64,000 nt of DNA from Candidatus Nomurabacteria bacterium. Lineage in GTDB: Bacteria; Patescibacteriota; Minisyncoccia; Phycocordibacterales; UBA9973. Below the pieces are notes generated by a model. It saw only the letters and a list, made by a program, of their open reading frames with translations, had not been told where the DNA came from and ran no database searches. Position numbers and translations under genes: made by a program. Shown piece by piece: positions 21,753-64,000 of the stretch; position 1 is the first letter of the stretch; each line of letters starts with the position of its first letter. Location: the NCBI GenBank assembly GCA_026396065.1, contig JAPLXO010000004.1, forward strand, positions 18,387 to 82,386, read 5' to 3'.

Positions 21753-21876
21753 TGCACTTGATGGGACTCGAACCCATACACCATGAATCTACACTACTTG
21801 TTTGGACCAAATAGAATAAACCAGGACTTACCCAGATCCTAATTCTGGAGCTCTACCAATTGTTAGCTACAAATGC
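21753..21876 (-). tRNA. Atypical tRNA-Leu(TAG)-like gene, 124 nt, with a ~54-nt insertion between the anticodon stem and the T-arm.
   Basis: By hand: acceptor GCATTTG/CAAGTGC (one G·U pair), D-arm, perfect anticodon stem CCAGA/TCTGG with loop ATTAGGA, canonical T-arm ATGGG-TTCGAGT-CCCAT. The 54 nt between them is far longer than a class II variable arm. Confidence 0.5.
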
Positions 21877-39946: not shown

Positions 39947-40119
39947 ATCTAGAGTAGGGTATGTTCTTTAAATAAATTGTTTTTGTGGTGTAGGGAACAC
40001 CTTGGACGGAAATTCTTCTTTCTAAAGTGTTCCTTATACAGATTATCGTATATTTAACCTTGATGATTCCCAGTAAAGGAATCAAAAACAAAAAATATAT
40101 ATTTAATACACAAAAAACA

Positions 40120-46807: not shown

Positions 46808-46826
46808 ATATGTTATAGTGTTTGTC

Positions 46827-48863
46827 ATGGACGAACATCTAGCAGGTCTAAATAGTTCACAAAAAGAAGCGGCTCTTCACACTGATGGGCCGCTTCTTAT
46901 TGTCGCGGGAGCAGGTGCTGGGAAAACTAAAACCATTACACATAGAATAGTAAATTTAATAAAGACTGGTATAGAGCCAAATAAAATTCTGGCTGTAACT
47001 TTTACAAATAAATCTGCAAAAGAAATGCGTGAAAGAATTTTGAATGAAATTGAGAAAAATGCCAAAGGAAATATTGAGCAAAATACTATACCTTTTGTAT
47101 CTACTTTTCACTCACTCGGTGTATATATAATCAAAGAAAATTCACGACTTTTAGGTGTCACTAGACATTTTACAATATTAGATGAAGGAGATTCACTTTC
47201 TATAATAAAAGAAGCTTTGAAAGAAAATGACTTAGACCCAAAGCAATATGAGCCAAAAAGAATGAAAGGCATTATTAGCCGTGAAAAAGGAAAGTTTACA
47301 AAAATGGAAGAGTATTTTGAAAATGCTACAGATTATCTGCCTAGAATTGTCGCACGTATTTGGAAAAGTTATGAAGCAAAAAAACTAAAAGAAAATGCAT
47401 TAGATTTTGATGATTTACTTTTAAAAGCTACGACATTATTAAAAGAAAATTTAGAAGTTCGTAAAATGTATCAAGACCGATGGAGCCATATACATATAGA
47501 TGAGTATCAGGATACAAATGAAGCTCAATATATAATGAGTAAATTACTTTCTGAAAAACACAAAAATATTTGTGTAGTGGGAGATGCTGATCAAAACATT
47601 TATTCTTGGCGTGGAGCAAATTTAAAAAATATTTTATCTTTTGAAAAAGATTATCCAAATGCAAAAATAGTATTACTGGAAGAAAATTATCGTTCCACAA
47701 AAAATATTTTAGAAGCAGCAAATACAATAATAAAGAAAAATAAATATCGTCCTGATAAAAATTTATTTACTTCAAATCCTGTCGGTGAAAAAATTTCATT
47801 ACATGAGGCTCTCGAGGAAACAGAAGAGGCGGACTTTATTGCATGTAAAATTTTAGAAATAGCAGACAGGCAAAATGTTCTTGAGAAAAGCATTGCGCAG
47901 ACTGACGAGCCGAGCACAGCAATTTCCCAGCAGGGAAATATGCGCGCTTTTCGAGAAAATATTTTGCCTGTCTGGTCAGATATTGCAATTTTGTATCGAG
48001 CAAACTTTCAATCTCGTGTACTAGAAGAAGCGATGCTACGTTACAATATTCCATATCAAGTTCTAGGCGTAAAATTTTTTGAAAGAAAAGAAATAAAAGA
48101 CACATTAGCATATTTGCGTGCAGCAATGAATCCAGAAAGCTTATCTGATATAAAAAGAATTATAAATTTCCCTGCACGTGGAATAGGCAAGACGACTTTA
48201 GCAAAACTTTTTGCTGGAGAGAAAGAAAATCTACCAATAAAAATGCAAATTAAAATTCGCGATTTTTATGAATTGTTAGAAGATACAAAAGAACAAATAC
48301 AAACTAGGACTGCATCAGAAGTAATAAAATATATAATCAAAAAATCGTGTATAGAAGATGAATTAAAAAACGGAGATGAAGAAGAATTGGAACGTCTAGA
48401 AAACATAAAAGAGCTTGCTACGCTTGCATTAAAATACGACAATTTGGAAAATGGACTCGGTGTAGAAAAGCTTATTGAGGATGCATCACTAGCCTCCGAT
48501 CAAGATTCTATAATGATTACCAATGAAAAACCAGAAAAGATTAATGCTGTTAAATTAATGACTGTTCACGCTTCAAAAGGACTGGAATTTAAATATGTTT
48601 TTGTCACAGGACTCGAAGAAGGACTTTTCCCAAATCAGCGTGATACTGAAAATAAATCAGCAGAAGATAGCGAAGAAGAGCGTAGACTTTTTTACGTAGC
48701 TATCACTCGTGCACGTGAAAAACTATTTTTATCATATGCAAACTTTAGAACTATTTTTGGTGAAAGAAGAATAAACACACCATCACAATTCATAGGAGAT
48801 ATACCAGCTGATATAATAGAAAAGGGGGATGAAGATCCAAATGTAAAAACTATTTATATATAA
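46827..48863 (+). CDS. pcrA: ATP-dependent DNA helicase, UvrD/PcrA family.
   Basis: Motif I GPLLIVAGAGAGKTKTITHRI, motif II HIHIDEYQDTN, and VHASKGLEF / YVAITRAR motifs. The ATG at 46827 is preferred over the GTG at 46818. Confidence 0.85.
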   Translation: MDEHLAGLNSSQKEAALHTDGPLLIVAGAGAGKTKTITHRIVNLIKTGIEPNKILAVTFTNKSAKEMRERILNEIEKNAKGNIEQNTIPFVSTFHSLGVYIIKENSRLLGVTRHFTILDEGDSLSIIKEALKENDLDPKQYEPKRMKGIISREKGKFTKMEEYFENATDYLPRIVARIWKSYEAKKLKENALDFDDLLLKATTLLKENLEVRKMYQDRWSHIHIDEYQDTNEAQYIMSKLLSEKHKNICVVGDADQNIYSWRGANLKNILSFEKDYPNAKIVLLEENYRSTKNILEAANTIIKKNKYRPDKNLFTSNPVGEKISLHEALEETEEADFIACKILEIADRQNVLEKSIAQTDEPSTAISQQGNMRAFRENILPVWSDIAILYRANFQSRVLEEAMLRYNIPYQVLGVKFFERKEIKDTLAYLRAAMNPESLSDIKRIINFPARGIGKTTLAKLFAGEKENLPIKMQIKIRDFYELLEDTKEQIQTRTASEVIKYIIKKSCIEDELKNGDEEELERLENIKELATLALKYDNLENGLGVEKLIEDASLASDQDSIMITNEKPEKINAVKLMTVHASKGLEFKYVFVTGLEEGLFPNQRDTENKSAEDSEEERRLFYVAITRAREKLFLSYANFRTIFGERRINTPSQFIGDIPADIIEKGDEDPNVKTIYI

Positions 48864-48864
48864 A

Positions 48865-49692
48865 ATGGAAAATAAAACAAAAATACACAAAGCAAAAAAA
48901 TCATTAGGGCAAAACTTTTTAAAATCAGTTCCTGCACTCACAGCAATAGTGAAATCTGGTGAGATTAATAATGCTGATACTATTTTAGAAATTGGTCCGG
49001 GTAAAGGAGCATTGACTGAAAAACTTTTGGAAGTTGCAGGAAAAGTTATTGCTGTAGAAAAAGATCGTGACCTTTTAGAATTTTTACAAACAAAATTTTC
49101 AGAAGAAATAAAAAATAAAAAACTGATTTTAATTAATGAAGATATTTTAGAATATAATTTAAAAATAAAAAATTACAAAATTATCGCAAATATTCCATAC
49201 AACATTACCGGAGCAATTTTGAAAAAGTTTTTAACAGATGAAAATCAACCAGAGAGAATGGTATTAATGGTGCAAAATGAAGTGGCAAAAAGAATTGTAG
49301 CCCGTGATGGAAGTGAAAGTATTTTATCAATTTCCGTAAAAGCATATGGAAACCCAAAAATTATTATGAAGGTGCCTGCACGATATTTTTCACCAGCACC
49401 AAAAGTAGACTCTGCAATTATTGCTATCACAAATATAAATAGAAATAATTTTCACCCCATCCCAACCTCCCCCTTAGCAAAGGGGGAGGGGAATTCTTTG
49501 GAAGAAAAATTCTGGAAAATAGTAAAAGCTGGCTTTGCTCATAAAAGAAAAATGTTAATGGGAAATTTAAAAGAATTTGATAAAAAAATAGATTGGCTCA
49601 GTATATTAACTAAGTTAAACATATCAATAAAATCTCGTGCAGAAGAATTGACACTAAACAATTGGCTTGAAATTACAAAAATGGTACAATAA
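48865..49692 (+). CDS. rsmA: 16S rRNA (adenine1518/1519-N6)-dimethyltransferase RsmA/KsgA, carrying an in-frame palindromic-repeat insertion.
   Basis: SLGQNFLKS, SAM-binding ILEIGPGKGALT and NIPYNIT motifs. An extra segment NFHPIPTSPLAKGEGN is encoded by a G/C hairpin repeat at 49453-49493. Confidence 0.85.
   Translation: MENKTKIHKAKKSLGQNFLKSVPALTAIVKSGEINNADTILEIGPGKGALTEKLLEVAGKVIAVEKDRDLLEFLQTKFSEEIKNKKLILINEDILEYNLKIKNYKIIANIPYNITGAILKKFLTDENQPERMVLMVQNEVAKRIVARDGSESILSISVKAYGNPKIIMKVPARYFSPAPKVDSAIIAITNINRNNFHPIPTSPLAKGEGNSLEEKFWKIVKAGFAHKRKMLMGNLKEFDKKIDWLSILTKLNISIKSRAEELTLNNWLEITKMVQ
49453..49493. repeat. Copy of the DUF559-associated palindromic mini-repeat family (caccccatcccaacctcccccttagcaaagggggaggggaa), inside the rsmA coding sequence.
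   Basis: 9-bp perfect stem ctccccctt/aagggggag at 49467-49488. The prefix cccatccc.a.c matches the unit at 32498-32542. Confidence 0.65.
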
Positions 49693-49696
49693 CTAC

Positions 49697-50206
49697 ATGA
49701 AAAAAGGTTTTTATATTTTAATTTTGACAGCTTTCATTTTAATGATTGGTATCAATGTGCATAAAAAAATCGACCAAGTATATGCGTCTGAAGGTGGAGA
49801 TACCGGTGGATCTTCTGACCAGCTTATGGCTGGAGAAATACAAGATTGGCAAGGAACTAGTGGACTAGTATCAAGAGAAATAGAAAGTTATGAAAATGCA
49901 GAATATACATGCATGATGGAAGGTACATCTATTACAATAACACCAATGGGTGAATTGGAAGGTGAACCAAAAGATTATTTTATACCTTCTGATGTTAATT
50001 CAGAAACTGGAAATACTCTACAGTCTGGAGAAATAATTATTGGTCTTTACCAGGGTACCACAGAAATTACCTGCCAACAAGACTATGAGCCTTGGGATAG
50101 TGTACAAGTAAAATTAAACACAATAAACTTTTTTGGTAATTCTCCATACATATCTCCAGCATCAGCCGGGGGTGGAGATATGTCAACGACAAACGGAACT
50201 GCATAA
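49697..50206 (+). CDS. Secreted hypothetical protein (signal peptide MKKGFYILILTAFILMIGINV).
   Basis: The ATG at 49697 lies just after the rsmA stop. The track ORF begins at a TTG at 49667. Confidence 0.5.
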   Translation: MKKGFYILILTAFILMIGINVHKKIDQVYASEGGDTGGSSDQLMAGEIQDWQGTSGLVSREIESYENAEYTCMMEGTSITITPMGELEGEPKDYFIPSDVNSETGNTLQSGEIIIGLYQGTTEITCQQDYEPWDSVQVKLNTINFFGNSPYISPASAGGGDMSTTNGTA

Positions 50207-50219
50207 TTATATTTTAAAA

Positions 50220-51176
50220 ATGATACAAATTAACAAAGAAAAAATTTCAAAGTATTTACCAAGTAAAAAGATAGCAATAATAGGCATTATTTGTATTGTC
50301 GTATTGACAATACTATATTTTTTCTTTCATGCATCACAAAAAGCAAAATATTTATCAGAAAATGAAAAAAATTCTTTATTATTAAACATTGGGAATAGCA
50401 CTATCAATGATCTTGTAGCAAAAGACTCAGATGGTGATGGCATACAAGACTGGCAAGAAAACCTTTGGGGTACAGACAAAAATAATACAAATACATTTAA
50501 TGGTATTTCAGATGCAGATTATATAGCAAAGAAAAAAGAAGGGTTAAATACAGCGGAAGATACTGCTGGTGTAAATCTTACAGAAACAGAAAAATTCTCT
50601 AGAGAATTTTTCTCTGCTTTTACAGCAATGAAAACTACAGAAGGAGTAGATGTAAACTTAGTAAATAATTTTGCTGAATCTTTAGGGCAAAACCTAGTAA
50701 ATCCATCTATTATAGATAAGTATACTGACAAAGATATTAAAAAAGATGACAGTGGAGATCAAGCACAGAGAGAAGAATATTATCTTTTAGTAGCTGAAAC
50801 ATATGATAAATACCAAGCTAAGGGTATGGGGAAAGAGCTAGAAATATTAGGTGACTCTTTGGCTACGTATTCAGCGACAGGAACACCAGACTCAGTAGAT
50901 GAATTAGAAAGTTTTGCTACAGCTTATCAAGATTTTGCATCAGAGCTTATGACACTTTCTGTACCAGCAGACCTAGCTACATATCATTTAAAAATAGTAA
51001 ATAGTGCAAATAACACAGGCATAAGTGTCAGCCATATGGCAAAAATCATAAATGATCCTATCGTAGCTGTATCTGGTCTTGCAGAATATCAAAAATACGA
51101 AGAAGCTTTCACCTTGGCAGCAAATGCTCTGGAGACAACATTACCCAAAGATGCTACAATAAGTATTGGAATTTAG
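50220..51176 (+). CDS. Single-pass membrane / periplasmic hypothetical protein.
   Basis: Start MIQINKEK with TM IAIIGIICIVVLTILYFFF. The track ORF 50133..51176 overlaps the upstream gene, so the ATG at 50220 is preferred. Confidence 0.5.
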   Translation: MIQINKEKISKYLPSKKIAIIGIICIVVLTILYFFFHASQKAKYLSENEKNSLLLNIGNSTINDLVAKDSDGDGIQDWQENLWGTDKNNTNTFNGISDADYIAKKKEGLNTAEDTAGVNLTETEKFSREFFSAFTAMKTTEGVDVNLVNNFAESLGQNLVNPSIIDKYTDKDIKKDDSGDQAQREEYYLLVAETYDKYQAKGMGKELEILGDSLATYSATGTPDSVDELESFATAYQDFASELMTLSVPADLATYHLKIVNSANNTGISVSHMAKIINDPIVAVSGLAEYQKYEEAFTLAANALETTLPKDATISIGI

Positions 51177-51209
51177 AAAAACAACACAAGTATAATTTTG
51201 CAAACTTAA

Positions 51210-54107
51210 ATGATTTCTATTAATAAAATATTTAAAAATATACTTTACTCAATTCTTTTAATAAACATCGTAATGATGCCTTATTTTGCATTAATACCTG
51301 ATGCTTATGCCTTTAACTTAACAAGTGGTGAACAATCAAACATAAAAGGTATCGCTGGATATATACATTACCTAGCACCAAAAATAGTAAGACTGCCTGG
51401 ATGTAGAGACATCATAGGAGTAGGTAATGGTGCCATTTTTGCTAAAATAAAAAATTCAGCTCTTGGAAAGAAGATTACAAAAAAATTAAATGACAAAATA
51501 AAAACAACAGCATCAAGCGCCCTAAGTAAAGCTGCTGGAAAATTGGGTGTAGGTTCTAAAAGTATAAAAGTCTCTCTTATCGAGACTGATCGTCAGCTTT
51601 TGTCAGATACAGCAGACAATACAGGAGACACTGCAAAAGAAACAAAAAAAATGTCATCAAAACAGCTTTGTCTAGATGGTATTGGTAAGTTAATTGCAAA
51701 ATTACTTCTAAAGAATATGACTATCAGTATGGTGAACTGGATAAATACTGGATATGAAGGCAAGCCATCTTTTGTGCAAAATCCAGGAAAGTTTCTAGAA
51801 AAAATAGGCCAACAAGAAATATTAAAATTTGGTAATGTAGTAGCTGATGTAAAATTATTCCCATATGGAAAAGATTTTATGAGGAATCAAGCTATAGCTG
51901 CCCTTCAAAACACTTTTTCTACTAGGGCACAATCAAACCTGGCTCGGCTTATGGCAGAAGATAGTGGATATACACCAGCTCAATTTAAACTTGATTTCAG
52001 AAATGGTGGATGGGGTGCATGGACAGCCCTCACTCAATCTCCTGGTAATAATGCATTTAGTTTTAATTTAATTGCTTCAGAAGAAATAGCTAAAAAAACA
52101 AAAGGTACTACAGAAGAATACACAGCACCTGGAGTACAAGCAAGGATAAGTATTTCAGATGCACAAGGATTTTTAAATATGGATCGTTGTAAAAAAGAAT
52201 GGATGCAAGAAGAAGATACAATGAATGGCGGAACTAAACTCACTGATCCAGCCAGATATGAAACAAATCATAAAATTACAAGAGCTGAAGAAGCTAAATT
52301 CCAAGCAGAAGGAACTCCTCACACAGGAAATTATGGCCATTGTGCTGAATGGGAAACAGTCACACCTGGTATGATGGTGTCTAATGCTGCAAAAAAAACG
52401 GGTGAGTGGGCAGCAGACAATATCTGGGATGCAAAAGATTTGAATGATTCCCTTATGGTTATATTAGATGCCGTAGTAACCAAATTTACAAGTGACTTGC
52501 AAAGAAAACAAGGTTATGCTGGACTTATTGATGGTGCTGGTTCTTCATCTTCTGATGATTCAAACAACGAGGGAGACTCTTTGACTTCTTATGATCAAAC
52601 AGATAAAGATTTCTCAACAGACGAGATAGAAGGTACTTTCTTAGCAGACAATCCTACTTTCAATGTACGTACAGACATCACACAAGCAATGATAGATGAC
52701 CAGCGTACATTTGTACAAAAACTAAAAGATCAAAATAGAGAACTTTTCTCTACAATTCCTACAAATGGGATTCCATATTTCACTGGTAATTACGGACTAA
52801 TACCAATAGTACACCAGCTTGATTTTTGTATCCCAGGACCACACCCAGGATGGGAAGATGGGGCAGATACAAAACTAGAAAATTTGAAAGATGACAACAT
52901 AGTAGATGTAGGTGGTATGAATTTTATGGAAATTGGTACATTGCTTGGTGGTCAGGAAGCAGAAAGTATGAAAGGGTTGTTGGATGCTAGTATTGCAGGT
53001 AGTATGGCTGATCTTAGTGGTACACTTACACCTGTAAACTTTGATCTTATATATTCACTTGGTAATGGTGGTGTAACTCTTTCACAAGAAGAAGCAAGAA
53101 AATATTATCATCAAAAAATACAAAACATGCTAGGTTTGAATGCACATAAAGATATGGCTATTGAAACTTATGATGACACAATAAATATTATCGATACGGC
53201 ATTCCAAGGATTTTTGCAAGTCGTACACAACGTCTTTAATCCATTAGTAATGCCATCATCACTACGAGAAGCAAATACAGAATTTGAAGCATTAGATAGT
53301 TACAATAAATTATATGAAAATAATAAGACAAATATAGCTACTAAAAATAACACAATAGTGAGACTAATAGGAGTAAAAAATGCAATAGCTACAATAAATG
53401 CTGACCCAAATACACCACCAGGAAGTGCTGCTTCTGAGGCAGCATTGAAGCCTTGGATTTCAGCTTTTGCGAGACTTGCCCCAGACCTAATGACAGGTAA
53501 CGATATCGCAAAAGCAGATGGTATTGTAAAAGATATAATAGATAAAGAAAAATATATTTATAATGAATTGTTGAAAGGTTCTGTAGGTTGTGAACAAGAA
53601 TTGTCAAAACCTGCTACAGCATTAGATCCAAATAAATTACCTCAATTAGTTTTAAATGGAATAAGATTTCCTTACCCACTTCCTGTTTTATATGACTATA
53701 ACAGTATCGGACACCTTGCACCATTACCTGATCCATTAGGTTCAATCCTTTATGATGGCGTAGGAAGTTATACTCCATACACAAACACTCAAGCTTATTG
53801 GAACAAACTTAATCCATATCCAAACCATTACAATGAACCATATAATTCAATGAATGCTATTATTCCATATAATCACTATTGGACAGAATTATCTTGGGCT
53901 GCATTCAACGGTTTCCCTGGTGGACCAGGCGTAAATGAACTTTGTGGATATGTTTTAGCGTATCCAGATACGCACCTGCAACCTACACCATGTGACGGTT
54001 CTTCTGGTCCTACAATAATACACATAAGTGGAGTATTAAATGCCGATTATGCAAATGCAAGTGGTGTTACATTAGATGTACTTGAACATCAATTAGGTTT
54101 GTATTAG
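51210..54107 (+). CDS. Large secreted hypothetical protein (965 aa) with a signal peptide.
   Basis: Signal peptide IFKNILYSILLINIVMMPYFALIPDAYA. Part of the T4SS-like surface-protein block. Confidence 0.6.
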   Translation: MISINKIFKNILYSILLINIVMMPYFALIPDAYAFNLTSGEQSNIKGIAGYIHYLAPKIVRLPGCRDIIGVGNGAIFAKIKNSALGKKITKKLNDKIKTTASSALSKAAGKLGVGSKSIKVSLIETDRQLLSDTADNTGDTAKETKKMSSKQLCLDGIGKLIAKLLLKNMTISMVNWINTGYEGKPSFVQNPGKFLEKIGQQEILKFGNVVADVKLFPYGKDFMRNQAIAALQNTFSTRAQSNLARLMAEDSGYTPAQFKLDFRNGGWGAWTALTQSPGNNAFSFNLIASEEIAKKTKGTTEEYTAPGVQARISISDAQGFLNMDRCKKEWMQEEDTMNGGTKLTDPARYETNHKITRAEEAKFQAEGTPHTGNYGHCAEWETVTPGMMVSNAAKKTGEWAADNIWDAKDLNDSLMVILDAVVTKFTSDLQRKQGYAGLIDGAGSSSSDDSNNEGDSLTSYDQTDKDFSTDEIEGTFLADNPTFNVRTDITQAMIDDQRTFVQKLKDQNRELFSTIPTNGIPYFTGNYGLIPIVHQLDFCIPGPHPGWEDGADTKLENLKDDNIVDVGGMNFMEIGTLLGGQEAESMKGLLDASIAGSMADLSGTLTPVNFDLIYSLGNGGVTLSQEEARKYYHQKIQNMLGLNAHKDMAIETYDDTINIIDTAFQGFLQVVHNVFNPLVMPSSLREANTEFEALDSYNKLYENNKTNIATKNNTIVRLIGVKNAIATINADPNTPPGSAASEAALKPWISAFARLAPDLMTGNDIAKADGIVKDIIDKEKYIYNELLKGSVGCEQELSKPATALDPNKLPQLVLNGIRFPYPLPVLYDYNSIGHLAPLPDPLGSILYDGVGSYTPYTNTQAYWNKLNPYPNHYNEPYNSMNAIIPYNHYWTELSWAAFNGFPGGPGVNELCGYVLAYPDTHLQPTPCDGSSGPTIIHISGVLNADYANASGVTLDVLEHQLGLY

Positions 54108-54145
54108 AAAATTAAAACTTTGTTAGCAAAAGACAGAAAGAAAAA

Positions 54146-57100
54146 ATGAAAAATATATATAAAAAAATAATATTAGCACTGATTGTAATAATAGTTGTAA
54201 CTCTAAGTATAAATAAAATTGCAAATGCTACTGGTGAACCATTAGTCGTTACTGATCCCGCGACTGAACAAACACCAACCACAATGAAAGTTCATGGCTC
54301 GGTAATAAATACAAATTTAGAACATCCATATCTTTGGTTTGAAGTTAGTCAAAGCCAGACAGACCTACTTAGTGGTTTAAATCCGCAGGCAGTCTATGTA
54401 AATGTTGTTGGTTTACCATCATACTCTATGATAGCACCACCAGTATACTCGATTACTCTTGGAAATATTTTTTTTAATTTAACACCTAACACAATATACT
54501 ATTTTAGATTTTGCGCATCAAATCAATACGGTACATATTGTGCAAGTCCTTTAAGTACAGCAACTCTTGTGGGTAATAGTGGTGGTGGTTCTGGTGGTTC
54601 TGGTGGTGGCAATCAAAACAATGCACCTGTAAATATTTCAAATGTAACCACATACGCACCAGCACAAAGTGTCACTGATACTTCTGCAATACTTCACGGC
54701 TCAGCAACAGTTACTGGGGGAGGTAATTCTTCTGGATATTTTCGTTATTCTAAAGTTACAATTCCTCCAATTTCATGTAATGATATTTTCGGTTCAGAAA
54801 TGGTAGCCACAAGGGAAGTGTCTCTTGCTGATTGGGTAAATGGTTCAGATTTTTATAAAAGTATACCAGACACTTCTTTCTCATCTAACAGTACTGCAAA
54901 TAATTTAGAACCAAATACAAAATATGCATATTGTGCAATAGTTTCAAATGATGCCCCAAACAACACTGGTAGACCACCTCAAATAAGGTATGGAGGAGTC
55001 CAAACATTTACTACACTTCCTTGTCCGCTAAACAATCCTACATGTCAATCAATAATTATAAATACAGATGATCCTTTTGTGGTAAATTCTTCTTCTGTAA
55101 ATCTAAACGGAAGTTATAATTCAAACAAAGCTATTAAAACTTGGTTTGAATATAAAAAAGACACAGATTCGAGCTGGATATCAACACCAAAAAATCTTAA
55201 TCAGGCTCAAAGTGCTGGTGAATATAATGCAAATTTATCTAGCTTGACAGCAAGCACACTATACAATGTTCGTGCTGCAGCAGAAGAATACACAAATGGA
55301 GTACTCGTCCCACCTATTTATTATGGTGATGTTGTAAATTTTCAAACCGCTGAACCAGATGGACCAGGAGTAATTGTCGGTGGACCAGAAGATGGTGCTA
55401 CTTATATCCCAGTTTATAATAATGATGATGGTTTGGTAAATGATATTGGTTTAGATAATGGTTCTGGATTAGACAATAATAATGGCAATGGTAACGATAA
55501 TGGTAATGGTTTAGGATCTGATAATGGTAATGGTAATGCTGGAGGTGAAAGCTCACAATGCCCTACACTTACATTGGCAAATGTTCCAAATCAAACAGTT
55601 CAAACCGGGTCAATACTTTCTTTTTCAAACTATGCTTGTGGATCAAATGGACAAGCTGTGACATATACAGCTACAGGATTACCAGCAGGCGCTACACTTA
55701 GCTCATCTGGAATATTTTCTTGGAATACAGGAGCTCTACCAATACCAGCAATAAATACTTATACATTTACAATTAATGCTAGTGCTCATGCAGTAAGTAG
55801 CACAGGTGCTACCACTACTACAATTGTTTATGCAGCACCTATTACTGTGACTGTAGATGTTGTACCAGTTCCACCAGATTGCTCTACTCTTAGAATAAAC
55901 TCAATAGAAAGCCAAACTATTTTCCTAGGTCAAACCGGTATTTTTAATATGAGTTCTTGTGGAGCAAACGGACAAACAGTAACTTATTTACCTACTAATG
56001 GTTTACCGAGTGGAGCAGTATTGACTCCAGCAGGAGCATTTTCATGGACACCATTAGCAAGTCAGATCAATGTTTACAATGTTACTATCAGTGCAAGTAC
56101 ACCTACCCAAGATCCAGTATCGATAACTGTACATATTAATGTTTCTCAATTTAATAGTTCTGGTGGAGGGGGTGGTGGAGGTCAATGTACAAGATTAGCA
56201 TTATCAGCTATAGGTATTCAGACCGTGCAAGCTGGATCTAGTTTAGCTTTCTCTGCTTATGCTTGTGGATCAAACGGAGAAACTGTCACATATCGTGCTA
56301 CAAATTTACCGAGTGGAGCCACATTCACACCAGATGGAATATTTTCTTGGAATACAGATGAAGATCAAGTAGATAGTTATGCAATTGTTATTAGCGCTGA
56401 CACTCCTTCTCAATATGCAGCACCTGTAACAGTACAAATAATAGTGACAGAAATACCTTTAGATTGTCCTGTCTTAAAAATTAATCCAATACAAACTCAA
56501 AATGTTACTGCTGGTCAAAACGTAGCTTTTTACGCAACTGTATGTGGAGATAATGGAGAAGTGGTTACTTATACTATGACTGATTTACCAGACGGAGCAG
56601 GATATAGTCAGCAAGCTGGATTATTTTTATGGACACCTACAACAAATCAAGCAAACAGTACTGGCTATAATGTAAAAGTAAATGCAAATACAAACACACA
56701 AGATGCAACAGAAAAAATAGTGCATATAAATGTTGCTCCAGCTATGAATGGTCTTGGAAATAATAATGGTAGCACAGGGGGTGACAATAGTTCACAATGC
56801 ACAACACTTACATTGGCTAATATTCCAAATCAAACTGTCCAAGCAGGATCAGGTCTATCATTTTCAGCTTATGCATGTGGATCAAATGGACAAGCTGTGA
56901 CATATACAGCTACAGGATTACCAGCAGGCGCTACACTTAGCTCATCTGGAATATTTTCTTGGAATACTACAACACAACAAGTAGGTACTTACACATTTAC
57001 AATTGGTGCCAGTGCTCATGCTGTAAATAGTATGGGAGCTAGTACCTCTACAATTATTTATGCTACACCAATCACTGTTACCATAGATGTAACACCAATC

Positions 57101-57997
57101 CCACTCGACTGCCCAATATTAAGAATTAATCCAATACAAAATCAATCTGTTGTAGTGGGTCAAACAGATGTTTTCAATGTCACTTCTTGTGGATCAAACG
57201 GAGAAACAGTCACATATTCTGCTACAGGATTACCGACAAATGCTACACTCACTCCAGCTGGATATTTTTCTTGGACACCAGTTGCAAGTCAAATTAATAT
57301 TTACAATATTACAATTAATGCAAGGACACCAAACCAAGATACAGTAACAACAAGAGTGCACATCAGTGTCACATTGCCAAGTGTGGGAATCGCTGACAAT
57401 GGAACAATAAGTGGATGTGTAGACACAAATGGAATACTTACTGATTGTATTATTACTGGAGGAGTAAATATTGATGGTACACTTACTGTGACTGTAAATG
57501 GAATAACTTATGTAAATACTGGTGGATCAAATACAAACGGAGTTACTACAGGGGGGACTACAGTAATAATATCTGTAAATGGAAATAGAACTGGAATGCT
57601 AGGAACACCGGGAACAATAGTACCAGCTATTGGTGCAGTAGCTATTCCACCTATAGATGATGTGGTGGGATATCAAGAAGGAATCGAAAATGTTTTCTAT
57701 AGACAAATAGTAGGTAATATTCCTTTTGCAAAACTGTACGGATATAGAGATGGAAATGATTTAAACGTCTTTGCTGGAATTCTTTCTCACACATTCGCAC
57801 AAATGTTTGGTTATGTGAATGGAGGCGGAAGAGAAATTCGAGTTAGTATTGCAAACATTGCTGCATACAGATTAGGATTCAAAAATGGTAGTCTAGCTGT
57901 TTATGAATATTATGACAACCATTTAACAGGTATATCTACACTTACAAGAAACTTCAAGAGTGCTTTTGACTACGAGTACTATTTCAAAAAGAAATAA
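54146..57997 (+). CDS. Giant surface protein (1283 aa) with an N-terminal TM/signal, a Gly/Ser linker and at least six repeated putative-Ig-like domains.
   Basis: Repeats of the form CGSNGQAVTYTATGLPAGATLSSSGIFSWNT, resembling He_PIG putative Ig domains. A 92-nt exact DNA repeat occurs at 55637-55728 and 56876-56967. Confidence 0.65.
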   Translation: MKNIYKKIILALIVIIVVTLSINKIANATGEPLVVTDPATEQTPTTMKVHGSVINTNLEHPYLWFEVSQSQTDLLSGLNPQAVYVNVVGLPSYSMIAPPVYSITLGNIFFNLTPNTIYYFRFCASNQYGTYCASPLSTATLVGNSGGGSGGSGGGNQNNAPVNISNVTTYAPAQSVTDTSAILHGSATVTGGGNSSGYFRYSKVTIPPISCNDIFGSEMVATREVSLADWVNGSDFYKSIPDTSFSSNSTANNLEPNTKYAYCAIVSNDAPNNTGRPPQIRYGGVQTFTTLPCPLNNPTCQSIIINTDDPFVVNSSSVNLNGSYNSNKAIKTWFEYKKDTDSSWISTPKNLNQAQSAGEYNANLSSLTASTLYNVRAAAEEYTNGVLVPPIYYGDVVNFQTAEPDGPGVIVGGPEDGATYIPVYNNDDGLVNDIGLDNGSGLDNNNGNGNDNGNGLGSDNGNGNAGGESSQCPTLTLANVPNQTVQTGSILSFSNYACGSNGQAVTYTATGLPAGATLSSSGIFSWNTGALPIPAINTYTFTINASAHAVSSTGATTTTIVYAAPITVTVDVVPVPPDCSTLRINSIESQTIFLGQTGIFNMSSCGANGQTVTYLPTNGLPSGAVLTPAGAFSWTPLASQINVYNVTISASTPTQDPVSITVHINVSQFNSSGGGGGGGQCTRLALSAIGIQTVQAGSSLAFSAYACGSNGETVTYRATNLPSGATFTPDGIFSWNTDEDQVDSYAIVISADTPSQYAAPVTVQIIVTEIPLDCPVLKINPIQTQNVTAGQNVAFYATVCGDNGEVVTYTMTDLPDGAGYSQQAGLFLWTPTTNQANSTGYNVKVNANTNTQDATEKIVHINVAPAMNGLGNNNGSTGGDNSSQCTTLTLANIPNQTVQAGSGLSFSAYACGSNGQAVTYTATGLPAGATLSSSGIFSWNTTTQQVGTYTFTIGASAHAVNSMGASTSTIIYATPITVTIDVTPIPLDCPILRINPIQNQSVVVGQTDVFNVTSCGSNGETVTYSATGLPTNATLTPAGYFSWTPVASQINIYNITINARTPNQDTVTTRVHISVTLPSVGIADNGTISGCVDTNGILTDCIITGGVNIDGTLTVTVNGITYVNTGGSNTNGVTTGGTTVIISVNGNRTGMLGTPGTIVPAIGAVAIPPIDDVVGYQEGIENVFYRQIVGNIPFAKLYGYRDGNDLNVFAGILSHTFAQMFGYVNGGGREIRVSIANIAAYRLGFKNGSLAVYEYYDNHLTGISTLTRNFKSAFDYEYYFKKK

Positions 57998-58041
57998 ATT
58001 CCTTTCAAAACATAAATATAGTATAATAGATACATAATTTA

Positions 58042-60648
58042 ATGAGAAAAAATTTTGTAGCAAAAATAGTAATATCATTTATTGCACTAGGCATTTTCTT
58101 ATTACCAATTTCTGCAACTTTTCAAAATTCTAATGGTATTCTTGCTGTAAAATCAAAAACAAATATTGCATTGGCAGATCCTTCTACTGTAGATTGGTGG
58201 TATGAATACAATACTGCTGCTGGAGTAGATACTATTGTCGGACCAAATAATAAAGCAGATTGTCTTAGTGATTATGGGCTCACTGTAGTAGGAGGGGCAT
58301 CACCAGTACGAACTTGTTTTGAATCAGCATCCACGCCTACATTAACGAGTACGCAATTAGTAACTACAGAATCTTGCCCACAAGGACAAGAGGGAACACC
58401 ACCAAACTGTAAAAAAATTATTCCAAAAAGTTATAGTTTGGGTTGTTCTTTGACAGATGGATGGGATGGAATTGGTGGATGTATTGCAGCTTTGACATAC
58501 TATGTTGTTTTCGTACCTGCAGCAGCCCTTGCAAGACTGGCTGGTTATTTTTTAGATTTCTTTGTTTATTATTCTACGAATAGCTCGTCTTATACAAATG
58601 GTTTTATTTCTACTGGTTGGGCTGTGGTACGCGATATTGCAAATATATTTTTTATAATTGCCCTTTTGTATGTGGCAATAAAAACAATATTAGGAATGGG
58701 TCATGATGGAAAGAAAATGATTGGTTATATTGTAGTCGTCGCACTTTTAATAAATTTTTCTTTATTTTTTACTCAAGTCATAATCGATGGATCAAATATC
58801 TTAGCAAAGGTATTTTACAATCACATAACAAATATAGATAAAAATGGTAAACCGCTAGATCCTAACATGGGAGCTGCTGGAGGACAAAAATCTATCTCTG
58901 TTAGTATTGTTGCAGGATTCAACCCAAAAGACATAATTGATGAAGAGTCATATCATAGTGTAGGTAGCGCAGACGGTACAGGTGGAATAGGTATGTTTAT
59001 TTTTATTACATTACTGGCTGCGGCACTTTGTGTTTATATTGCATTTATATTTTTTAGTGTTGGGCTCTTATTTGTAGGTAGAGTGGTGGCTCTTTGGATA
59101 TCTATGATTTTTTCTCCTTTAGCTTTTGCATCTTACACAATGCCTATTGATATCCCTGGATTTGGACACAAAGAATGGTGGAAAGAACTTTTGAGTAATG
59201 CATTTTTAGCACCATTATTTATATTCATGCTTTATATTATTTTACTTTTCATTGAAGGATTAAAGAAAATAACTTATGGCACAGCTGATCCAAACGCAAC
59301 TTTTTTTGATAAAGCAATGCATGTGATAATACCATTTATCATTATTGTCGTTCTTCTTATGAAAGCAAAAGAGTTGGCAATAAAATATTCTGGAGAAATG
59401 GGAGCTATGTTTGCAAAAGCTGGTGGAGCTATCAGTGGAGCAGTAGTCGGTGGTGCAATTGGTGTCGGTGCATTAGCAGCTAGATCTACTTTGGGTAGAG
59501 CAAGTAATGCACTAGGAAATTCAAAAATGATGCAGACATGGGAAGCAAAAGGTTGGGGTGGCGGTGCTGTACGAAAAATGTTTGAAAAGGGTGGAAAGGC
59601 TAGCTTTGATGTTCGTGGAACAGGACTTACTAGCGGTGTAGGTAGTGCGGCAAAAGGTGGCTTTGCAGGAGCTAAAGAAAGACAAATTGCAGAAAGGTTG
59701 AATAGAGCAAAATCTTTGGAGGCAGGAGAAAATAGTAAAGAAAAACAAGATGTTTACAAAGCACAAGCAGCTGTGAAGGAAGCAGAAGCAAATCCAAAAG
59801 TACAAGAAGAAATCCGACAAGCAAATATTGTTATTAAGAATGCAGATATTGCTATTGATGCTCAGAAAGAAAAAGTGGCAGATGCAGAGAAGAAGGTAGC
59901 AGATGCAGATAAAGATATTAAAGAAGGAGAAAATGATATTGCAGACGGAGAAAGACAGGCAAAAGTCGTAAGTGATCAACTTGGTAAACTTACTAAGGCC
60001 GACCTTGATGGTGAAAAGGGAAATGAACTAAGAGCAGAACTAGAAGCAGCTAAAAATAAAATGAAGGGTGGTCAATCTAAGAAAGATGCAGCAAGAGAAT
60101 TAAAAGAAAAACCAGGAGGTTTGTTGGAACAATTGAAAACAGAAAAAGCTGAACTAAAACGATTAGACCAAGAACAGAACGGAAATAAAGGTGAAATGGC
60201 AAATGCTCAGAAACTTATTACATCAGGTGAGGCAGATATGGCAGCAGCAGGAAATGACTCAGCAAGAAAAGCTGCAGCTCAAGCAAAAATAGATGCAGGT
60301 AAGGCGGCAATGGCACTTGCAGACGGAAACAGAGGAAAACTAAAGAGAGCAGAAAAACCAATTGAAGATGCAAAATTAGCAGAGAAAAAAGCTAAATTAA
60401 TACTGGAAACACATAATATAGAGATAAGACAAGTATATGCTACTACTACAGAGAGTGATCTTCATCAAATTATATCTGTAATTTCTGGAGAAAGTACTGA
60501 TGCAAATACTGAGTCTGCAAACAAGATAAGGGCACAGTTTAGTGGAGGTGGAAGCCACTCATCACCAACACCTGCACCAGCAGCAAAACCGACAGTATCT
60601 GCACCAGCAGCAAAAGTAACAGTAAAAGCAGATGATCATCATAAGTAA
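58042..60648 (+). CDS. Polytopic membrane protein with a long charged C-terminal coiled-coil. Candidate VirB6/TrbL-like T4SS channel component.
   Basis: Signal/TM1, then ~8 TM helices between residues ~150 and 480, then a ~390-aa hydrophilic K/E/A-rich tail. The architecture matches VirB6-like proteins of Gram-positive-type T4SS (e.g. TcpH-like). Lies near PrgI-like and VirB4 genes. Confidence 0.5.
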   Translation: MRKNFVAKIVISFIALGIFLLPISATFQNSNGILAVKSKTNIALADPSTVDWWYEYNTAAGVDTIVGPNNKADCLSDYGLTVVGGASPVRTCFESASTPTLTSTQLVTTESCPQGQEGTPPNCKKIIPKSYSLGCSLTDGWDGIGGCIAALTYYVVFVPAAALARLAGYFLDFFVYYSTNSSSYTNGFISTGWAVVRDIANIFFIIALLYVAIKTILGMGHDGKKMIGYIVVVALLINFSLFFTQVIIDGSNILAKVFYNHITNIDKNGKPLDPNMGAAGGQKSISVSIVAGFNPKDIIDEESYHSVGSADGTGGIGMFIFITLLAAALCVYIAFIFFSVGLLFVGRVVALWISMIFSPLAFASYTMPIDIPGFGHKEWWKELLSNAFLAPLFIFMLYIILLFIEGLKKITYGTADPNATFFDKAMHVIIPFIIIVVLLMKAKELAIKYSGEMGAMFAKAGGAISGAVVGGAIGVGALAARSTLGRASNALGNSKMMQTWEAKGWGGGAVRKMFEKGGKASFDVRGTGLTSGVGSAAKGGFAGAKERQIAERLNRAKSLEAGENSKEKQDVYKAQAAVKEAEANPKVQEEIRQANIVIKNADIAIDAQKEKVADAEKKVADADKDIKEGENDIADGERQAKVVSDQLGKLTKADLDGEKGNELRAELEAAKNKMKGGQSKKDAARELKEKPGGLLEQLKTEKAELKRLDQEQNGNKGEMANAQKLITSGEADMAAAGNDSARKAAAQAKIDAGKAAMALADGNRGKLKRAEKPIEDAKLAEKKAKLILETHNIEIRQVYATTTESDLHQIISVISGESTDANTESANKIRAQFSGGGSHSSPTPAPAAKPTVSAPAAKVTVKADDHHK

Positions 60649-60674
60649 AAAAGTAAACAGTAACAAACAAATTT

Positions 60675-61142
60675 ATGACAGAAGAATTAAAACAAAAAAT
60701 TAAAGAGCAATTGTTAACACTACCAAAAGACTCTCAGCAAGCATTGGAATCTTTCGATTGGATTTTAGAAACAGAAAAGATAGCAAAGGAACACAATATA
60801 CCTGAAGAAAATTCAAGTAAAATAGCCACGGAAATCGTTCTGATTTTGTGCAGATATGAATATAGTGGAGCTTTAGCTGATAATATAGCAGAAAATGTAA
60901 GTATAAATAAAAAAGAAGCAGAAGAGATTACACAAAAGATATTAAAAAGAATTTTAAAACCAATAAGTGACAAAAGAATTGAAATAATTAAACAAAACAT
61001 AAAAACAAAAATTCCTACTTGGGATAAATGGATGAAATTTGTACTGTCTGGTGGAGATTATTCTGTTTTTGGTGATAGCCAATTTTCTAAAACAATGATA
61101 GAACCAAAATTAATAAATACAAGGGGAAACCTTGTGATATAA
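60675..61142 (+). CDS. Hypothetical cytoplasmic protein (155 aa), paralogous at its N-terminus to the next gene.
   Basis: LPKDSQQALESFDW versus LPEETRQSIDNVDW in the 61150 ORF. Confidence 0.45.
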   Translation: MTEELKQKIKEQLLTLPKDSQQALESFDWILETEKIAKEHNIPEENSSKIATEIVLILCRYEYSGALADNIAENVSINKKEAEEITQKILKRILKPISDKRIEIIKQNIKTKIPTWDKWMKFVLSGGDYSVFGDSQFSKTMIEPKLINTRGNLVI

Positions 61143-61149
61143 TAAATAT

Positions 61150-61980
61150 ATGATAATGGATTTATTACAAATAAAGATCGAGAAGGCAAAGGCATTATTG
61201 CCAGAAGAAACAAGACAATCAATAGACAATGTTGATTGGAGACAAGCAATCTTAGATATAAAAACAAAAAAAGGTTTTAATTTAGACCAATTGGAAAACC
61301 TAGAAATAGAAACAGAGCTTCTTCTTTGTGGTCTTTTAGACCCAAAAGAATATCCAAAACAACTTCAAAGTAAACTTGGAATTACAGATAATGAAGCTCA
61401 AGAGTTGGTAAATGACATGAATGAACACGCTTTCAAAAAAATTCGTGATGAATTTATGAAAATTACCGATAAACAAAATACAGAATTATTAAAACACAGA
61501 GCTGAAATAGCAAAAGAAATCCCTGTAGAAAAAATTCCAATTAAAATAGTTACACCAGATCAAACACAGACAAAAGAAGATACATCCATTTTAAAAACAG
61601 CTGGAATAGAAATAACCCCGGCTTCTTTTAAGAAAGAAGTAGCTAGTGACATATCAGAAAAAAGAGATGATATGATAAAAGATTTAGAGCAACCAGAATT
61701 GATCAATAAACAAGAAGTAAAAACAAAAATAGGAATAGAAACAATAAATAAAATATTACCGACAATATCAAATTCAAAACTTTCTGGAAGCTTTCAAATA
61801 CCGACAGCAAAGACAGAGTACTCACTAGGTAATATGACAAAAAACACAGAAATAAAAGAGTTGACTCCAAATAAAAATCTAGCTGAAATGGAGATATCTA
61901 CACCAAAAGAAAACACAATCACAAGACCGAAAATACCAGGAGTTGACCCGTACTTGATGCCGATAGATGACGAAAAATAG
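61150..61980 (+). CDS. Hypothetical protein (276 aa), N-terminal paralog of the 60675 ORF.
   Basis: ORF in the T4SS-like cluster. Confidence 0.45.
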   Translation: MIMDLLQIKIEKAKALLPEETRQSIDNVDWRQAILDIKTKKGFNLDQLENLEIETELLLCGLLDPKEYPKQLQSKLGITDNEAQELVNDMNEHAFKKIRDEFMKITDKQNTELLKHRAEIAKEIPVEKIPIKIVTPDQTQTKEDTSILKTAGIEITPASFKKEVASDISEKRDDMIKDLEQPELINKQEVKTKIGIETINKILPTISNSKLSGSFQIPTAKTEYSLGNMTKNTEIKELTPNKNLAEMEISTPKENTITRPKIPGVDPYLMPIDDEK

Positions 61981-62013
61981 TAACTAGACAATAAAACCTA
62001 GAAACTAATTAAT

Positions 62014-62460
62014 ATGCAATTTAAAGTACCACAATTTTTAGATATAGAAGATAAAATATTTGGTCCATTTACCTTTAGACAATTTGCGTACTTAGCAGGA
62101 GGTGGTGGATTATGTTTTGTCATATACAGAGCATTACCTTGGTATTTTGCTATTTTTTTAATTTTACCACTTGCAGGCCTTTCTTTAATGCTAACGTTTT
62201 ATAAAATAAACAACAAGCCTTTCCTTAATGTAATAGAATCAGCTTTCAAATATGCTTTTGCAAGTAAACTCTACATTTGGAAAAGAAGAATGAAAAAGAA
62301 AGAAGATCAAGAAAAAGAAGCGCAAGTAGCGGAAGATAAAAAAATAGAAATGCGAGGTGCTACACCGCTTGGAACAAGCAGATTAAAAGATTTATCTTGG
62401 AGTTTAGATGTATTAGATGTAAAAAAGGGGAATGAAGATGAATTAAAAAACACACAATAA
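62014..62460 (+). CDS. Small two-TM membrane protein, PrgI/VirB3-like candidate.
   Basis: 148 aa. N-terminal FLDIEDKIFGPFTFRQFAYLAGGGGLCFVIY...YFAIFLILPLAGLSLMLTFY hairpin. Immediately upstream of VirB4, the usual position of VirB3/PrgI. Confidence 0.4.
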   Translation: MQFKVPQFLDIEDKIFGPFTFRQFAYLAGGGGLCFVIYRALPWYFAIFLILPLAGLSLMLTFYKINNKPFLNVIESAFKYAFASKLYIWKRRMKKKEDQEKEAQVAEDKKIEMRGATPLGTSRLKDLSWSLDVLDVKKGNEDELKNTQ

Positions 62461-62464
62461 TTAT

Positions 62465-63130
62465 ATGGCATTATCAGCAAAAGCAACTCAAGAGTTTGTA
62501 CCTATCAAGGAAGTCCGTGATGGTATTGTAGTTATGAAAGATGGTCAATTGCGAGCCATCGTTTTAGCTAATTCCACAAACCTTTCTTTAAAATCTGAAG
62601 AAGAACAAAAGGCTACAATAATGCAATTCCAGTCTTTTCTAAATACAATCGACTTTCCAATACAAATAGTAGTGCAATCTAGACGCCTAGACATAAGACC
62701 ATATTTACTTCTTTTAGAAAACAGAATGAAAGCTCAGACAGAACCATTACTTAAAATACAAACAAAGGAATATATGCAGTTCATAAGAAATTTTACTGAA
62801 ACCACAAACATAATGACAAAAAATTTCTTCATCATAGTTCCATATAGTGTGGAAAAAATGGTGACTAGTAGTAGTGGAGGAATTTTTAGTAGATTTTTTT
62901 CTAAACAAACCAAGGCAATGGAAAAGGAAGCTCAAACAAAAGATTTTGAAGAAAAAAGATCTCAGCTTGATCAGAGAATAGGTGTGATAGAGCAAGGTTT
63001 GGCACGATGCGGTATTAAATCAGTAGAACTTGGTACAGAAGAAGTGGTAGAAGTATTTTATAAAGTATTTAATCCAGGAGAAATAGAGGGTAAGATAAAT
63101 TTAAGCCAAGGAGAAGAAAAAAAGCTATAA
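62465..63130 (+). CDS. virB4: VirB4/TrbE-family N-terminal segment (221 aa) as a separate ORF, ending in a double stop TAA TAA.
   Basis: FVPIKEVRDGIVVMKDGQLRAIVLANSTNLSLKSEEEQKATIMQFQSFLNTIDFPIQIVVQSRRLD matches the conserved N-terminus of Gram-positive VirB4 homologues (TraE/PrgJ/TrsE type). Confidence 0.6.
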   Translation: MALSAKATQEFVPIKEVRDGIVVMKDGQLRAIVLANSTNLSLKSEEEQKATIMQFQSFLNTIDFPIQIVVQSRRLDIRPYLLLLENRMKAQTEPLLKIQTKEYMQFIRNFTETTNIMTKNFFIIVPYSVEKMVTSSSGGIFSRFFSKQTKAMEKEAQTKDFEEKRSQLDQRIGVIEQGLARCGIKSVELGTEEVVEVFYKVFNPGEIEGKINLSQGEEKKL

Positions 63131-63152
63131 TAAAACAAACAGTTATAAATAT

Positions 63153-64000
63153 ATGGGAATTTTAGATAAATTATTAGGAAGAAAAACTAGCGGAAAAGAT
63201 GCTGTAAAAGCATCTGTTTTACCAGTACTACCCCAAGAAATATATGAGTCAGCTGTTATGGAGCTTCAAGATATTATTGCTCCTTCAGCTTTAAAAATAG
63301 AACCAAAAGCATTAAACTTAGGGGATAAAATCGCTAGAACTTTTTTTGTCATTTCTTATCCTAGATTTCTAACAGAAAATTGGTTTTCTCCAATTATAAA
63401 CTTGGATAAAGTTTTTGATGTAGCAATTTTTATACACCCAATAGATACTTCTCTAGCTTTAAGACAATTTCAAAAGAAAGTTGCCGAAGTGCAAAGTCAG
63501 ATTAATGAACGTGAATCAAAAGGAATGGTGCGTGATCCAATGCTCGATACAGCAAACCAAGATCTCGAAGGTCTTCGAGACAGCTTGATGCAAGCACAAG
63601 AAAAAATGTTTGATGTTGGATTATACATCACAATATATGCTGATAATGACCTAGAACTTTTTAAAATTGAAAGTGAGATAAAATCTATTCTAGAATCAAA
63701 ACTTATTTATTTAAAACCAGCATTATTCCAACAAGATGATGGTTTTAAGAGTATTATTCCACTAGGCAACGATCTTTTGAGTGTTCACCAAAAATTAAAT
63801 TCAGAACCACTTTCTAGTATTTTTCCATTCGTTTCTTTCGACTTAACATCTGATAAAGGAATACTATATGGATTAAATAGACACAATTCATCTATGGTTA
63901 TTTTTGATAGATTTTCATTAGAAAATTACAATTCCGTAACTTTTGCAAAATCTGGATCTGGAAAATCTTATTGTACAAAGTTAGAAATCTTGCGTAGTTT
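63153..64000 (+). CDS. virB4: VirB4/TrbE-family conjugal-transfer ATPase, C-terminal portion (partial: Walker A reached, runs off the window).
   Basis: IFPFVSFDLTSDKGILYGLNRHNSSMVIFDRF...NSVTFAKSGSGKSY is the pre-Walker-A region plus the Walker A of VirB4. The ATG at 63153 is in the +1 frame relative to the upstream fragment. Confidence 0.75.
   Translation, partial: MGILDKLLGRKTSGKDAVKASVLPVLPQEIYESAVMELQDIIAPSALKIEPKALNLGDKIARTFFVISYPRFLTENWFSPIINLDKVFDVAIFIHPIDTSLALRQFQKKVAEVQSQINERESKGMVRDPMLDTANQDLEGLRDSLMQAQEKMFDVGLYITIYADNDLELFKIESEIKSILESKLIYLKPALFQQDDGFKSIIPLGNDLLSVHQKLNSEPLSSIFPFVSFDLTSDKGILYGLNRHNSSMVIFDRFSLENYNSVTFAKSGSGKSYCTKLEILRS

Follow-up and report, generated by a model that had tools for sequence, protein, structure and literature searches.

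A large share of bacterial diversity belongs to the Patescibacteria, which live attached to host cells. The window analysed here is a stretch of 64,000 nucleotides from a Candidatus Nomurabacteria bacterium (GCA_026396065.1, contig JAPLXO010000004.1, positions 18,387 to 82,386), and its final part carries a gene cluster for a type IV secretion system (T4SS). Ten co-directional open reading frames (ORFs) on the forward strand run from 49697 to the window end at 64000, with intergenic gaps of 4-45 nucleotides. A first-pass annotation had read this block as a T4SS-like cluster. Each ORF that it listed was found on the forward strand where it had been placed, but a 221-residue ORF at 62465-63130 had been overlooked. 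The T4SS reading itself holds, with VirB4, PrgI and VirB6-like members all confirmed; neither of the two outcomes named beforehand as grounds for dropping it, a lack of VirB4 and VirB6 likeness or an unrelated ATPase context downstream, was encountered. The related loci referred to below are the 80 listed of 568 confirmed VirB4-related stretches, in which ORFs were called and matched by BLAST to the window proteins. Two long ENA contigs, L001 and L002, carry the cluster but with visibly fragmented genes, and were used for context only.

The last gene of the block encodes a VirB4 ATPase, of which the window holds the first 282 codons (63153..64000, +). The ORF stops at the Walker A motif (FAKSGSGKSY, residues 273-282) because the window stops there, and the gene continues past it. 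This fragment matches the NCBIfam CD1110-type VirB4 (E 3.8e-43, profile positions 184-437 of 752) and is 78-91% identical to the VirB4 of 80 listed species labelled Candidatus Nomurabacteria, Paceibacteria or Patescibacteria. Orthologues are about 612 residues long, and the full-length copy in related locus L008, at 614 residues, reaches 382 bits, above the curated cutoff of 325. The same copy matches the solved VirB4 C-terminal domain 4ag5 (E 5.5e-40) and R388 TrwK (E 6e-7). With the family match and the Walker A motif both in place, the VirB4 call made at first pass stands, and by its sequence the protein is of the Gram-positive CD1110/MPF-FATA type.

Ahead of virB4 lies the overlooked ORF (62465..63130, +), a 221-residue TrsD-like protein homologous to the VirB4 N-terminal domain. 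In NCBIfam it matches VirB4_plasma (E 3e-12, profile positions 102-236), TrsD/TraD (E 6.8e-7) and positions 2-119 of the CD1110 VirB4 (E 1.9e-6), each below the cutoff for the full-length family. Since these matches fall on N-terminal regions of VirB4, a VirB4-like N-terminal module is encoded here as a separate gene. It is likewise an ORF of its own in 79 of the 80 related loci, at a median identity of 71%; its orthologues in L001 and L002 have a precomputed match to PF26593 (TraC-like), and a search of the PDB returned chance-level matches only. The preceding gene (62014..62460, +) encodes a protein of 148 residues that scores 39.0 bits against Pfam PrgI (PF12666; cutoff 27, E 1.2e-9), with a further match to TcpE (E 0.006). 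A hydropathy scan places a transmembrane (TM) hairpin at residues 33-62, in agreement with the earlier description of a two-TM PrgI/VirB3-like protein, and homologues occur in 77 related loci at a median identity of 55%. In both ENA contigs the T4SS operon includes a small 23S_rRNA_IVP gene (PF05635; L001:8445-8813, L002:8295-8531) immediately ahead of the PrgI gene, which is itself weakly called in L002 and recognised by position only in L001; the window has no such gene.

The 868-residue product of 58042..60648 (+) is an extended, VirB6-like polytopic membrane protein. A signal or first TM segment is followed by an outside segment of about 120 residues, a helical membrane core (about residues 130-460) and a hydrophilic, low-complexity tail of about 390 residues, with roughly 6-8 hydrophobic helices ahead of the tail in a simple hydropathy scan. 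An NCBI entry from a Candidatus Nomurabacteria metagenome-assembled genome (locus tag NTZ44_01175) has the identical sequence. The protein has no Pfam family, and sequence and profile comparisons of its family with the PDB gave chance-level matches only. A below-cutoff match to a conjugal-transfer family of the Mycoplasma integrative and conjugative element (ICE) covers 285 of 322 profile positions (E 2.2e-5), and a tblastn search of 72,556 plasmids with the core found nothing significant. The structure of residues 1-520 was predicted from an alignment of 69 sequences, with a mean predicted local distance difference test (pLDDT) score of 73 and values of 80-92 in the membrane core (residues 130-460). 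When this model was compared with 350,542 chains in Foldseek, three TrwI chains ranked first and DotA fourth, at weak E-values of 0.06-0.36. By this predicted fold only, the family is called VirB6-like, and its median identity in the related loci is 36%. The VirB6/TrbL-like architecture proposed at first pass therefore agrees with hydropathy, which makes the protein polytopic, and with the modelled fold.

Upstream of the VirB6-like gene are four genes for proteins taken to be secreted or at the surface at first pass, and a hydropathy scan found an N-terminal hydrophobic segment in each of them. The smallest has 169 residues counted from its ATG (49697..50206, +). It matches no family in Pfam or NCBIfam and has only one partial homologue in the 80 related loci, and in L078 the gene for the 318-residue protein comes directly after ksgA; by this distribution it appears lineage-specific, and its role is uncertain. 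For the second gene the secreted-type N-terminus was borne out while the start had to be moved. The ORF can begin at 50133 or at 50220 and ends at 51176, and the ATG at 50220 is most likely the true start because it lies just past the stop of the previous gene and gives a length that fits orthologues of 270-310 residues. The resulting bitopic protein of 318 residues (50220..51176, +) has a TM segment at residues 18-36 and an extracellular domain. Its family has a conserved DxDxDG motif of calcium-binding type, and the bacterial TSP3 repeat was matched in 7 of 31 members. Homologues occur in 30 related loci at a median identity of 29%; compared with the PDB, the family profile gave chance-level matches to helical proteins only, and no match to VirB8 or the NTF2 fold.

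The third of these proteins, a conserved secreted protein of 965 residues (51210..54107, +), is mostly alpha-helical and rich in conserved cysteine and tryptophan. A word-indexed search gave 6 homologues only, and an exhaustive search was needed to reveal 2451 cluster representatives at E <= 1e-3; median identity in the related loci is 28%. The family has no sequence relative in Pfam or the PDB. Its structural model is confident only for the all-helical C-terminal half, for which the fold matches are generic helical proteins only.

The fourth is a surface protein of 1283 residues with immunoglobulin (Ig) repeats (54146..57997, +), comprising a signal or anchor, FN3-like N-terminal modules, six He_PIG Ig stretches and a C-terminal domain of about 125 residues. 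The Pfam match to He_PIG (E 1.8e-45) upholds its earlier description as an Ig-repeat protein. Conservation in relatives is limited to residues ~160-400 and 1160-1283, and the gene is present between the 965-residue and VirB6-like genes in 11 of the 30 loci that have both neighbours. Within the gene, 55550-55728 repeats at 56789-56967 and 55740-55995 at 56970-57225, with 89% and 73% identity, and these repeats indicate what would be a recent duplication of He_PIG Ig modules. The He_PIG middle of the protein is, as far as its sequence tells, a lineage-specific expansion, and we regard the whole as a candidate adhesin and variable surface protein. Its C-terminal domain had chance-level matches only in the PDB. 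In related locus L028 a single gene (L028:3395-7168) encodes a fusion of 1257 residues that unites the VirB6-like protein with an FN3-like N-terminal module from the Ig family, and this suggests that the two are physically associated.

Two small cytoplasmic proteins separate the VirB6-like protein from PrgI. The first, of 155 residues (60675..61142, +), has no TM segment and has homologues in 27 loci; the second, of 276 residues (61150..61980, +), shares an N-terminal domain with it and has homologues in 67. They had been called paralogs, and they are indeed similar, but only weakly (28% identity over 108 residues, pairwise E 3e-5). Neither has a PDB match above chance, and the 276-residue protein has no Pfam match.

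Across related Paceibacteria loci the genes recur in one order: ksgA, the 318-residue and 965-residue proteins, in some loci the Ig/FN3 protein, then the VirB6-like protein, the 155/276-residue family, PrgI, the TrsD-like protein and VirB4. Three further genes on the same strand follow virB4 in relatives, encoding proteins of about 325, 410-590 and 450 residues (also listed as a 323-residue protein, a pilin-M15 protein and a 479-residue protein), and beyond them lie jag, yidC, rnpA and rpmH on the opposite strand and then dnaA and dnaN. In L008 the first of the three is a secreted protein with weak, below-cutoff matches to Ig/PKD domains only, and the third has no family. The second, about 1 kb downstream of virB4 (L008:12844-14259), encodes 471 residues with a signal peptide, a cysteine-rich domain, a pilin hairpin and a peptidase domain; it matches the VirB2-type pilin family PF18895 (27.4 bits, cutoff 26.6) and the cell-wall hydrolase family Peptidase_M15_4 (E 2e-14). 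BLAST finds homologues of it in 71 of the 80 loci, of which only 7 align over at least half the length of the L008 protein, the domains having been scanned in the L008 copy only. From its domains, this pilin-M15 protein may combine the VirB2 and VirB1 roles. The downstream continuation seen in relatives thus consists of more T4SS parts followed by the jag-yidC-rnpA-rpmH-dnaA region.

Conservation across these loci is uneven. Median identity to the reference proteins is 86% for VirB4, 71% for the TrsD-like protein, 55% for PrgI, 36% for the VirB6-like protein, 29% for the 318-residue protein and 28% for the 965-residue protein, and the extracellular proteins span 28-39%. This fall in identity from the cytoplasmic to the extracellular parts fits an apparatus with a host-facing interface.

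At the other end the cluster is bordered by ksgA (rRNA adenine dimethylase, 48865..49692, +; Pfam RrnaAD E 1.1e-53), which is preceded by uvrD/pcrA (46818-48863), directly ahead of the block. ksgA is no part of the T4SS and forms its conserved left border. In 20 related loci the cluster is likewise preceded by a ksgA homologue, which directly adjoins it in L078 and is separated from it by one opposite-strand ORF in L015 and L036, and ksgA is listed among the genes abundant near virB4 in the survey of Quinonero-Coronel et al. 2025 (Microb Genom, PMC12102498). The cluster region has a GC content of about 31-37% and the whole window one of 30-39%, with no compositional break, and promoter and terminator scans gave nothing above shuffled expectation. 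As seen from window 36000-64000 and related loci, the forward-strand operon converges on jag-yidC-rnpA-rpmH and would run head-on to replication if the origin lies between rpmH and dnaA. GC and AT skews of the forward strand are nevertheless positive almost throughout 40-64 kb, probably from a coding-strand purine bias.

Together these data make the identity of the system firm, and we consider it highly probable that the cluster is a chromosomally fixed, non-conjugative T4SS of the Patescibacteria clade in a member of Candidatus Nomurabacteria (Paceibacteria). The features that carry this assignment are a CD1110/MPF-FATA VirB4, a separate TrsD-like gene, PrgI/VirB3, a VirB6-like protein and the ksgA border. 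Very probably, too, the cluster derives from Gram-positive MPF-FATA conjugation machinery that has lost its DNA-processing half, the relaxase and coupling protein. Family scans found neither a relaxase nor a type IV coupling protein (T4CP) among the scanned ORFs of the window, and in relatives neither occurs within about 10 kb on either side. The earlier remarks that neither is visible in the window and that systems of this kind would not serve classical conjugation agree with the relatives, whose downstream continuation has a pilin and a peptidase and no VirD4 or relaxase. From the gene order, the cluster appears to adjoin the presumed replication origin, at a fixed position near dnaA.

An ICE of Gram-positive type, or its remnant, would transfer DNA between cells and could have its relaxase, coupling protein and integrase past the window end. 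Such an element might be suspected from VirB4, which is closest to the ICE and plasmid families CD1110 and Mycoplasma ICE VirB4, from the weak match of the VirB6-like protein to a Mycoplasma ICE family, and from a tyrosine recombinase gene on the reverse strand at 29258-30205 (Phage_integrase family, E 3e-43). This recombinase, however, lies 20 kb away among housekeeping genes and gives no sign of a link to the T4SS cluster; it is probably a housekeeping enzyme of XerC/D type. GC content is uniform, the roughly 6 kb downstream of virB4 in L008 contain no relaxase, T4CP or integrase family, and relaxases were reported in only 103 of the 3035 Patescibacteria genomes of the survey (PMC12102498). 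Above all, the same locus and gene order recur in dozens of species, bounded by ksgA on one side and jag-yidC-rnpA-rpmH-dnaA on the other. Fixed synteny and the absence of relaxase, coupling protein and integrase therefore argue for a chromosomal operon rather than a mobile element, and we reject the ICE reading, which is largely refuted by synteny and very improbable.

Some points weigh against our assignment to a fixed, non-conjugative T4SS. No sequence match to a VirB8-like protein (PrgL/TcpC/TraM, NTF2 fold) was found in the cluster. The window ends inside virB4, and the genes downstream are taken from relatives at 78-91% VirB4 identity. VirD4 homologues are described in many Patescibacteria, far from virB4 (PMC12102498), and the present genome may likewise have a coupling-protein gene at another site. 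Finally, there is no experiment on any Paceibacteria T4SS.

These data allow us to propose how the machine might work. The motor at the cytoplasmic face would consist of VirB4, the TrsD-like protein as a detached partner resembling its N-terminus, and PrgI/VirB3 with its two TM helices; it would sit on the extended VirB6-like protein, which would provide a platform or channel in the membrane. Among the downstream genes of relatives is one for a VirB2-like pilin with a fused M15 peptidase; the pilin would be assembled into a tube or pilus that crosses the wall, with the peptidase helping its passage. The 318-residue and 965-residue secreted proteins and the variable Ig-repeat protein would be the outward, host-facing part and decorate or anchor this tube. 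The machine would act at the site of host contact, moving macromolecules between host and epibiont rather than plasmid DNA between peers. The roles given here to proteins without annotation, and the direction in which transport would run, are our own proposals. Function in DNA uptake or attachment, as the first-pass annotation suggested, is a hypothesis here as it is in the literature, and essentiality for epibiotic growth is suggested by analogy with Saccharibacteria.

Within this assignment two functions deserve weighing, and we slightly favour import of host material over effector export, holding each to be possible and neither probable. An importer of nucleic acids, like Helicobacter ComB or archaeal Ced, would feed host DNA or RNA to a nucleotide-auxotrophic cell; it would be a sub-hypothesis of the T4SS assignment and not an alternative identity. 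The lack of a relaxase or T4CP agrees with it, and the L008 VirB4 weakly matches CedB, an ATPase of DNA import, along 70 residues (E 4e-8). The idea has been put forward in the published survey (PMC12102498) and in a review (PMC11665869), and a 2026 preprint on a cultivated relative describes host-RNA feeding together with tubular structures, possibly T4SS pili, at the host interface (bioRxiv 10.64898/2026.06.21.733656). Against import, direct substrate evidence is lacking and none of the cluster's products was recognised as binding DNA or RNA.

The system could instead export protein effectors, or act only as a pilus for adhesion, and so subvert the host cell or keep hold of it, with the large secreted proteins of the operon as substrates or tip adhesins; we give this a somewhat lower chance than import. 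The operon does encode the 318-residue, 965-residue and Ig-repeat secreted proteins, its extracellular parts diverge fast, relatives have a VirB2-like pilin downstream, and effector delivery has been speculated on in the literature. Yet the hydrophobic segments at the N-termini of these proteins resemble Sec signals or anchors, so that a T4SS is not required for their export, the coupling protein that usually recruits effectors is absent from the cluster, and no effector-like toxin domain was found. A more specific form of import, which we think rather unlikely, is that the Paceibacteria system is a feeding conduit, a host-piercing tube importing host RNA or DNA and built jointly from the 965-residue family, the 318-residue protein with its TSP3 motif, the downstream 323-residue and 479-residue proteins and the VirB2-pilin/M15 fusion. 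If true, this would be a functional class of T4SS without a characterised counterpart, with new structural components.

The first-pass annotation had also drawn ComM and large proteins upstream into the functional neighbourhood of the T4SS. We find no support for this and reject their membership. Between ComM (YifB-type, 37094-38665) and the cluster lie a gene for an M23/LysM peptidase on the opposite strand, genes for three proteins that match no family (188, 530 and 1469 residues), uvrD and ksgA. The 530-residue protein (40676-42268), labelled LD-transpeptidase-like at first pass, has no Pfam match at E <= 0.001, so that label finds no support, and the 1469-residue protein (42398-46807) had no relatives in a metagenome pattern scan. 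Six sizeable ORFs of the window, up to 1469 residues, have no Pfam family match: 23937-25670 (-), 10231-11058 (-), 5721-6530 (+), 40027-40593 (+), 40676-42268 (+) and 42398-46807 (+). Elsewhere in the window, an Rfam tRNA call at 21753-21876 (-; 41.8 bits, 124 nucleotides) was not made by ARAGORN; its anticodon loop is AUUAGGA (UAG, Leu), with an insertion of about 50 nucleotides at the position of the variable arm.

A T4SS of this kind is essential in the one species tested. What the present locus adds is modest: a fold-level VirB6 call, from a predicted structure, for a family that sequence profiles miss, conserved secreted families within the operon, the Ig-module/VirB6 fusion of L028 and the pilin-M15 fusion of relatives. 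They may help to direct future structural and genetic studies.

The closest described system is that of the Patescibacteria clade itself. Quinonero-Coronel et al. surveyed 3035 genomes, found VirB4 in 2417 and placed most of these in one clade nested within MPF-FATA (PMC12102498). In their account TrsD is the commonest companion of VirB4, PrgI/VirB3, VirB6 and VirB2-like pilins lie near virB4, and Paceibacteria T4SS genes are found near dnaA, dnaN, rnpA, ksgA and rpmH. VirB6 had only 480 matches in their hidden Markov model survey, which the authors put down to divergence, and PrgB-type adhesins were not detected. The likeness to our locus extends to the MPF-FATA VirB4, the separate TrsD, PrgI/VirB3, VirB6, in relatives a pilin nearby, the lack of a relaxase and the location, and nothing essential differs from the system as described there. 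The conserved 318-residue and 965-residue secreted families and the pilin-M15 fusion were not found in that paper's account of the system. The locus thus matches the published description feature by feature; it is an ordinary instance of a system that nearly all of the ultrasmall Patescibacteria (CPR) have beside their replication origin and that was already described in 2023-2025, so finding it is not new.

The experimental reference is Southlakia epibionticum ML1, in which Wang et al. 2023 (Cell, PMC10633639) showed by transposon sequencing (Tn-seq) that a homologous cluster is essential for epibiotic growth; essentiality is demonstrated for Saccharibacteria (ML1) only. That cluster, SEML1_0006-0019, shares with ours a VirB4 of about 612 residues (1839-bp gene), a PrgI family protein and a large VirB6-like protein whose helical core is MAPEG-like, a fold call also obtained for the 868-residue protein. 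The gene adjacent to virB4 in ML1, hypothetical there, is called a TrsD homologue in PMC12102498. As reported, the ML1 cluster includes PF18895 pilins and lacks both a relaxase and a coupling protein. It differs in belonging to Saccharimonadia and in having six separate pilin genes and an NTF2/VirB8-like protein, whereas in the Paceibacteria relatives a single pilin domain is joined to an M15 peptidase, and a VirB8-like protein was not recognised here. Reviews treat T4SS function in these bacteria as unknown and propose effector delivery or macromolecule import (PMC11665869).

Further away, R388 TrwI/VirB6 (PDB 7o3v, 8rt9) is 10-17% identical in sequence to the 868-residue protein, which is three times longer and has an N-terminal outside segment and a tail of about 390 residues, hence "extended VirB6". 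With the Gram-positive MPF-FATA systems (pCF10 Prg/Pcf, pGO1/pSK41 Trs, C. difficile CTn2) the cluster shares a CD1110-type VirB4, PrgI, TrsD (in the pGO1 subclass), a polytopic VirB6/PrgH analogue, a cell-wall hydrolase and the lack of an outer-membrane core complex. In contrast to these systems it has no relaxase or T4CP and is not on a mobile element, its relatives have a VirB2-like pilin that Gram-positive systems lack, and it encodes large conserved secreted proteins that have no counterpart there.

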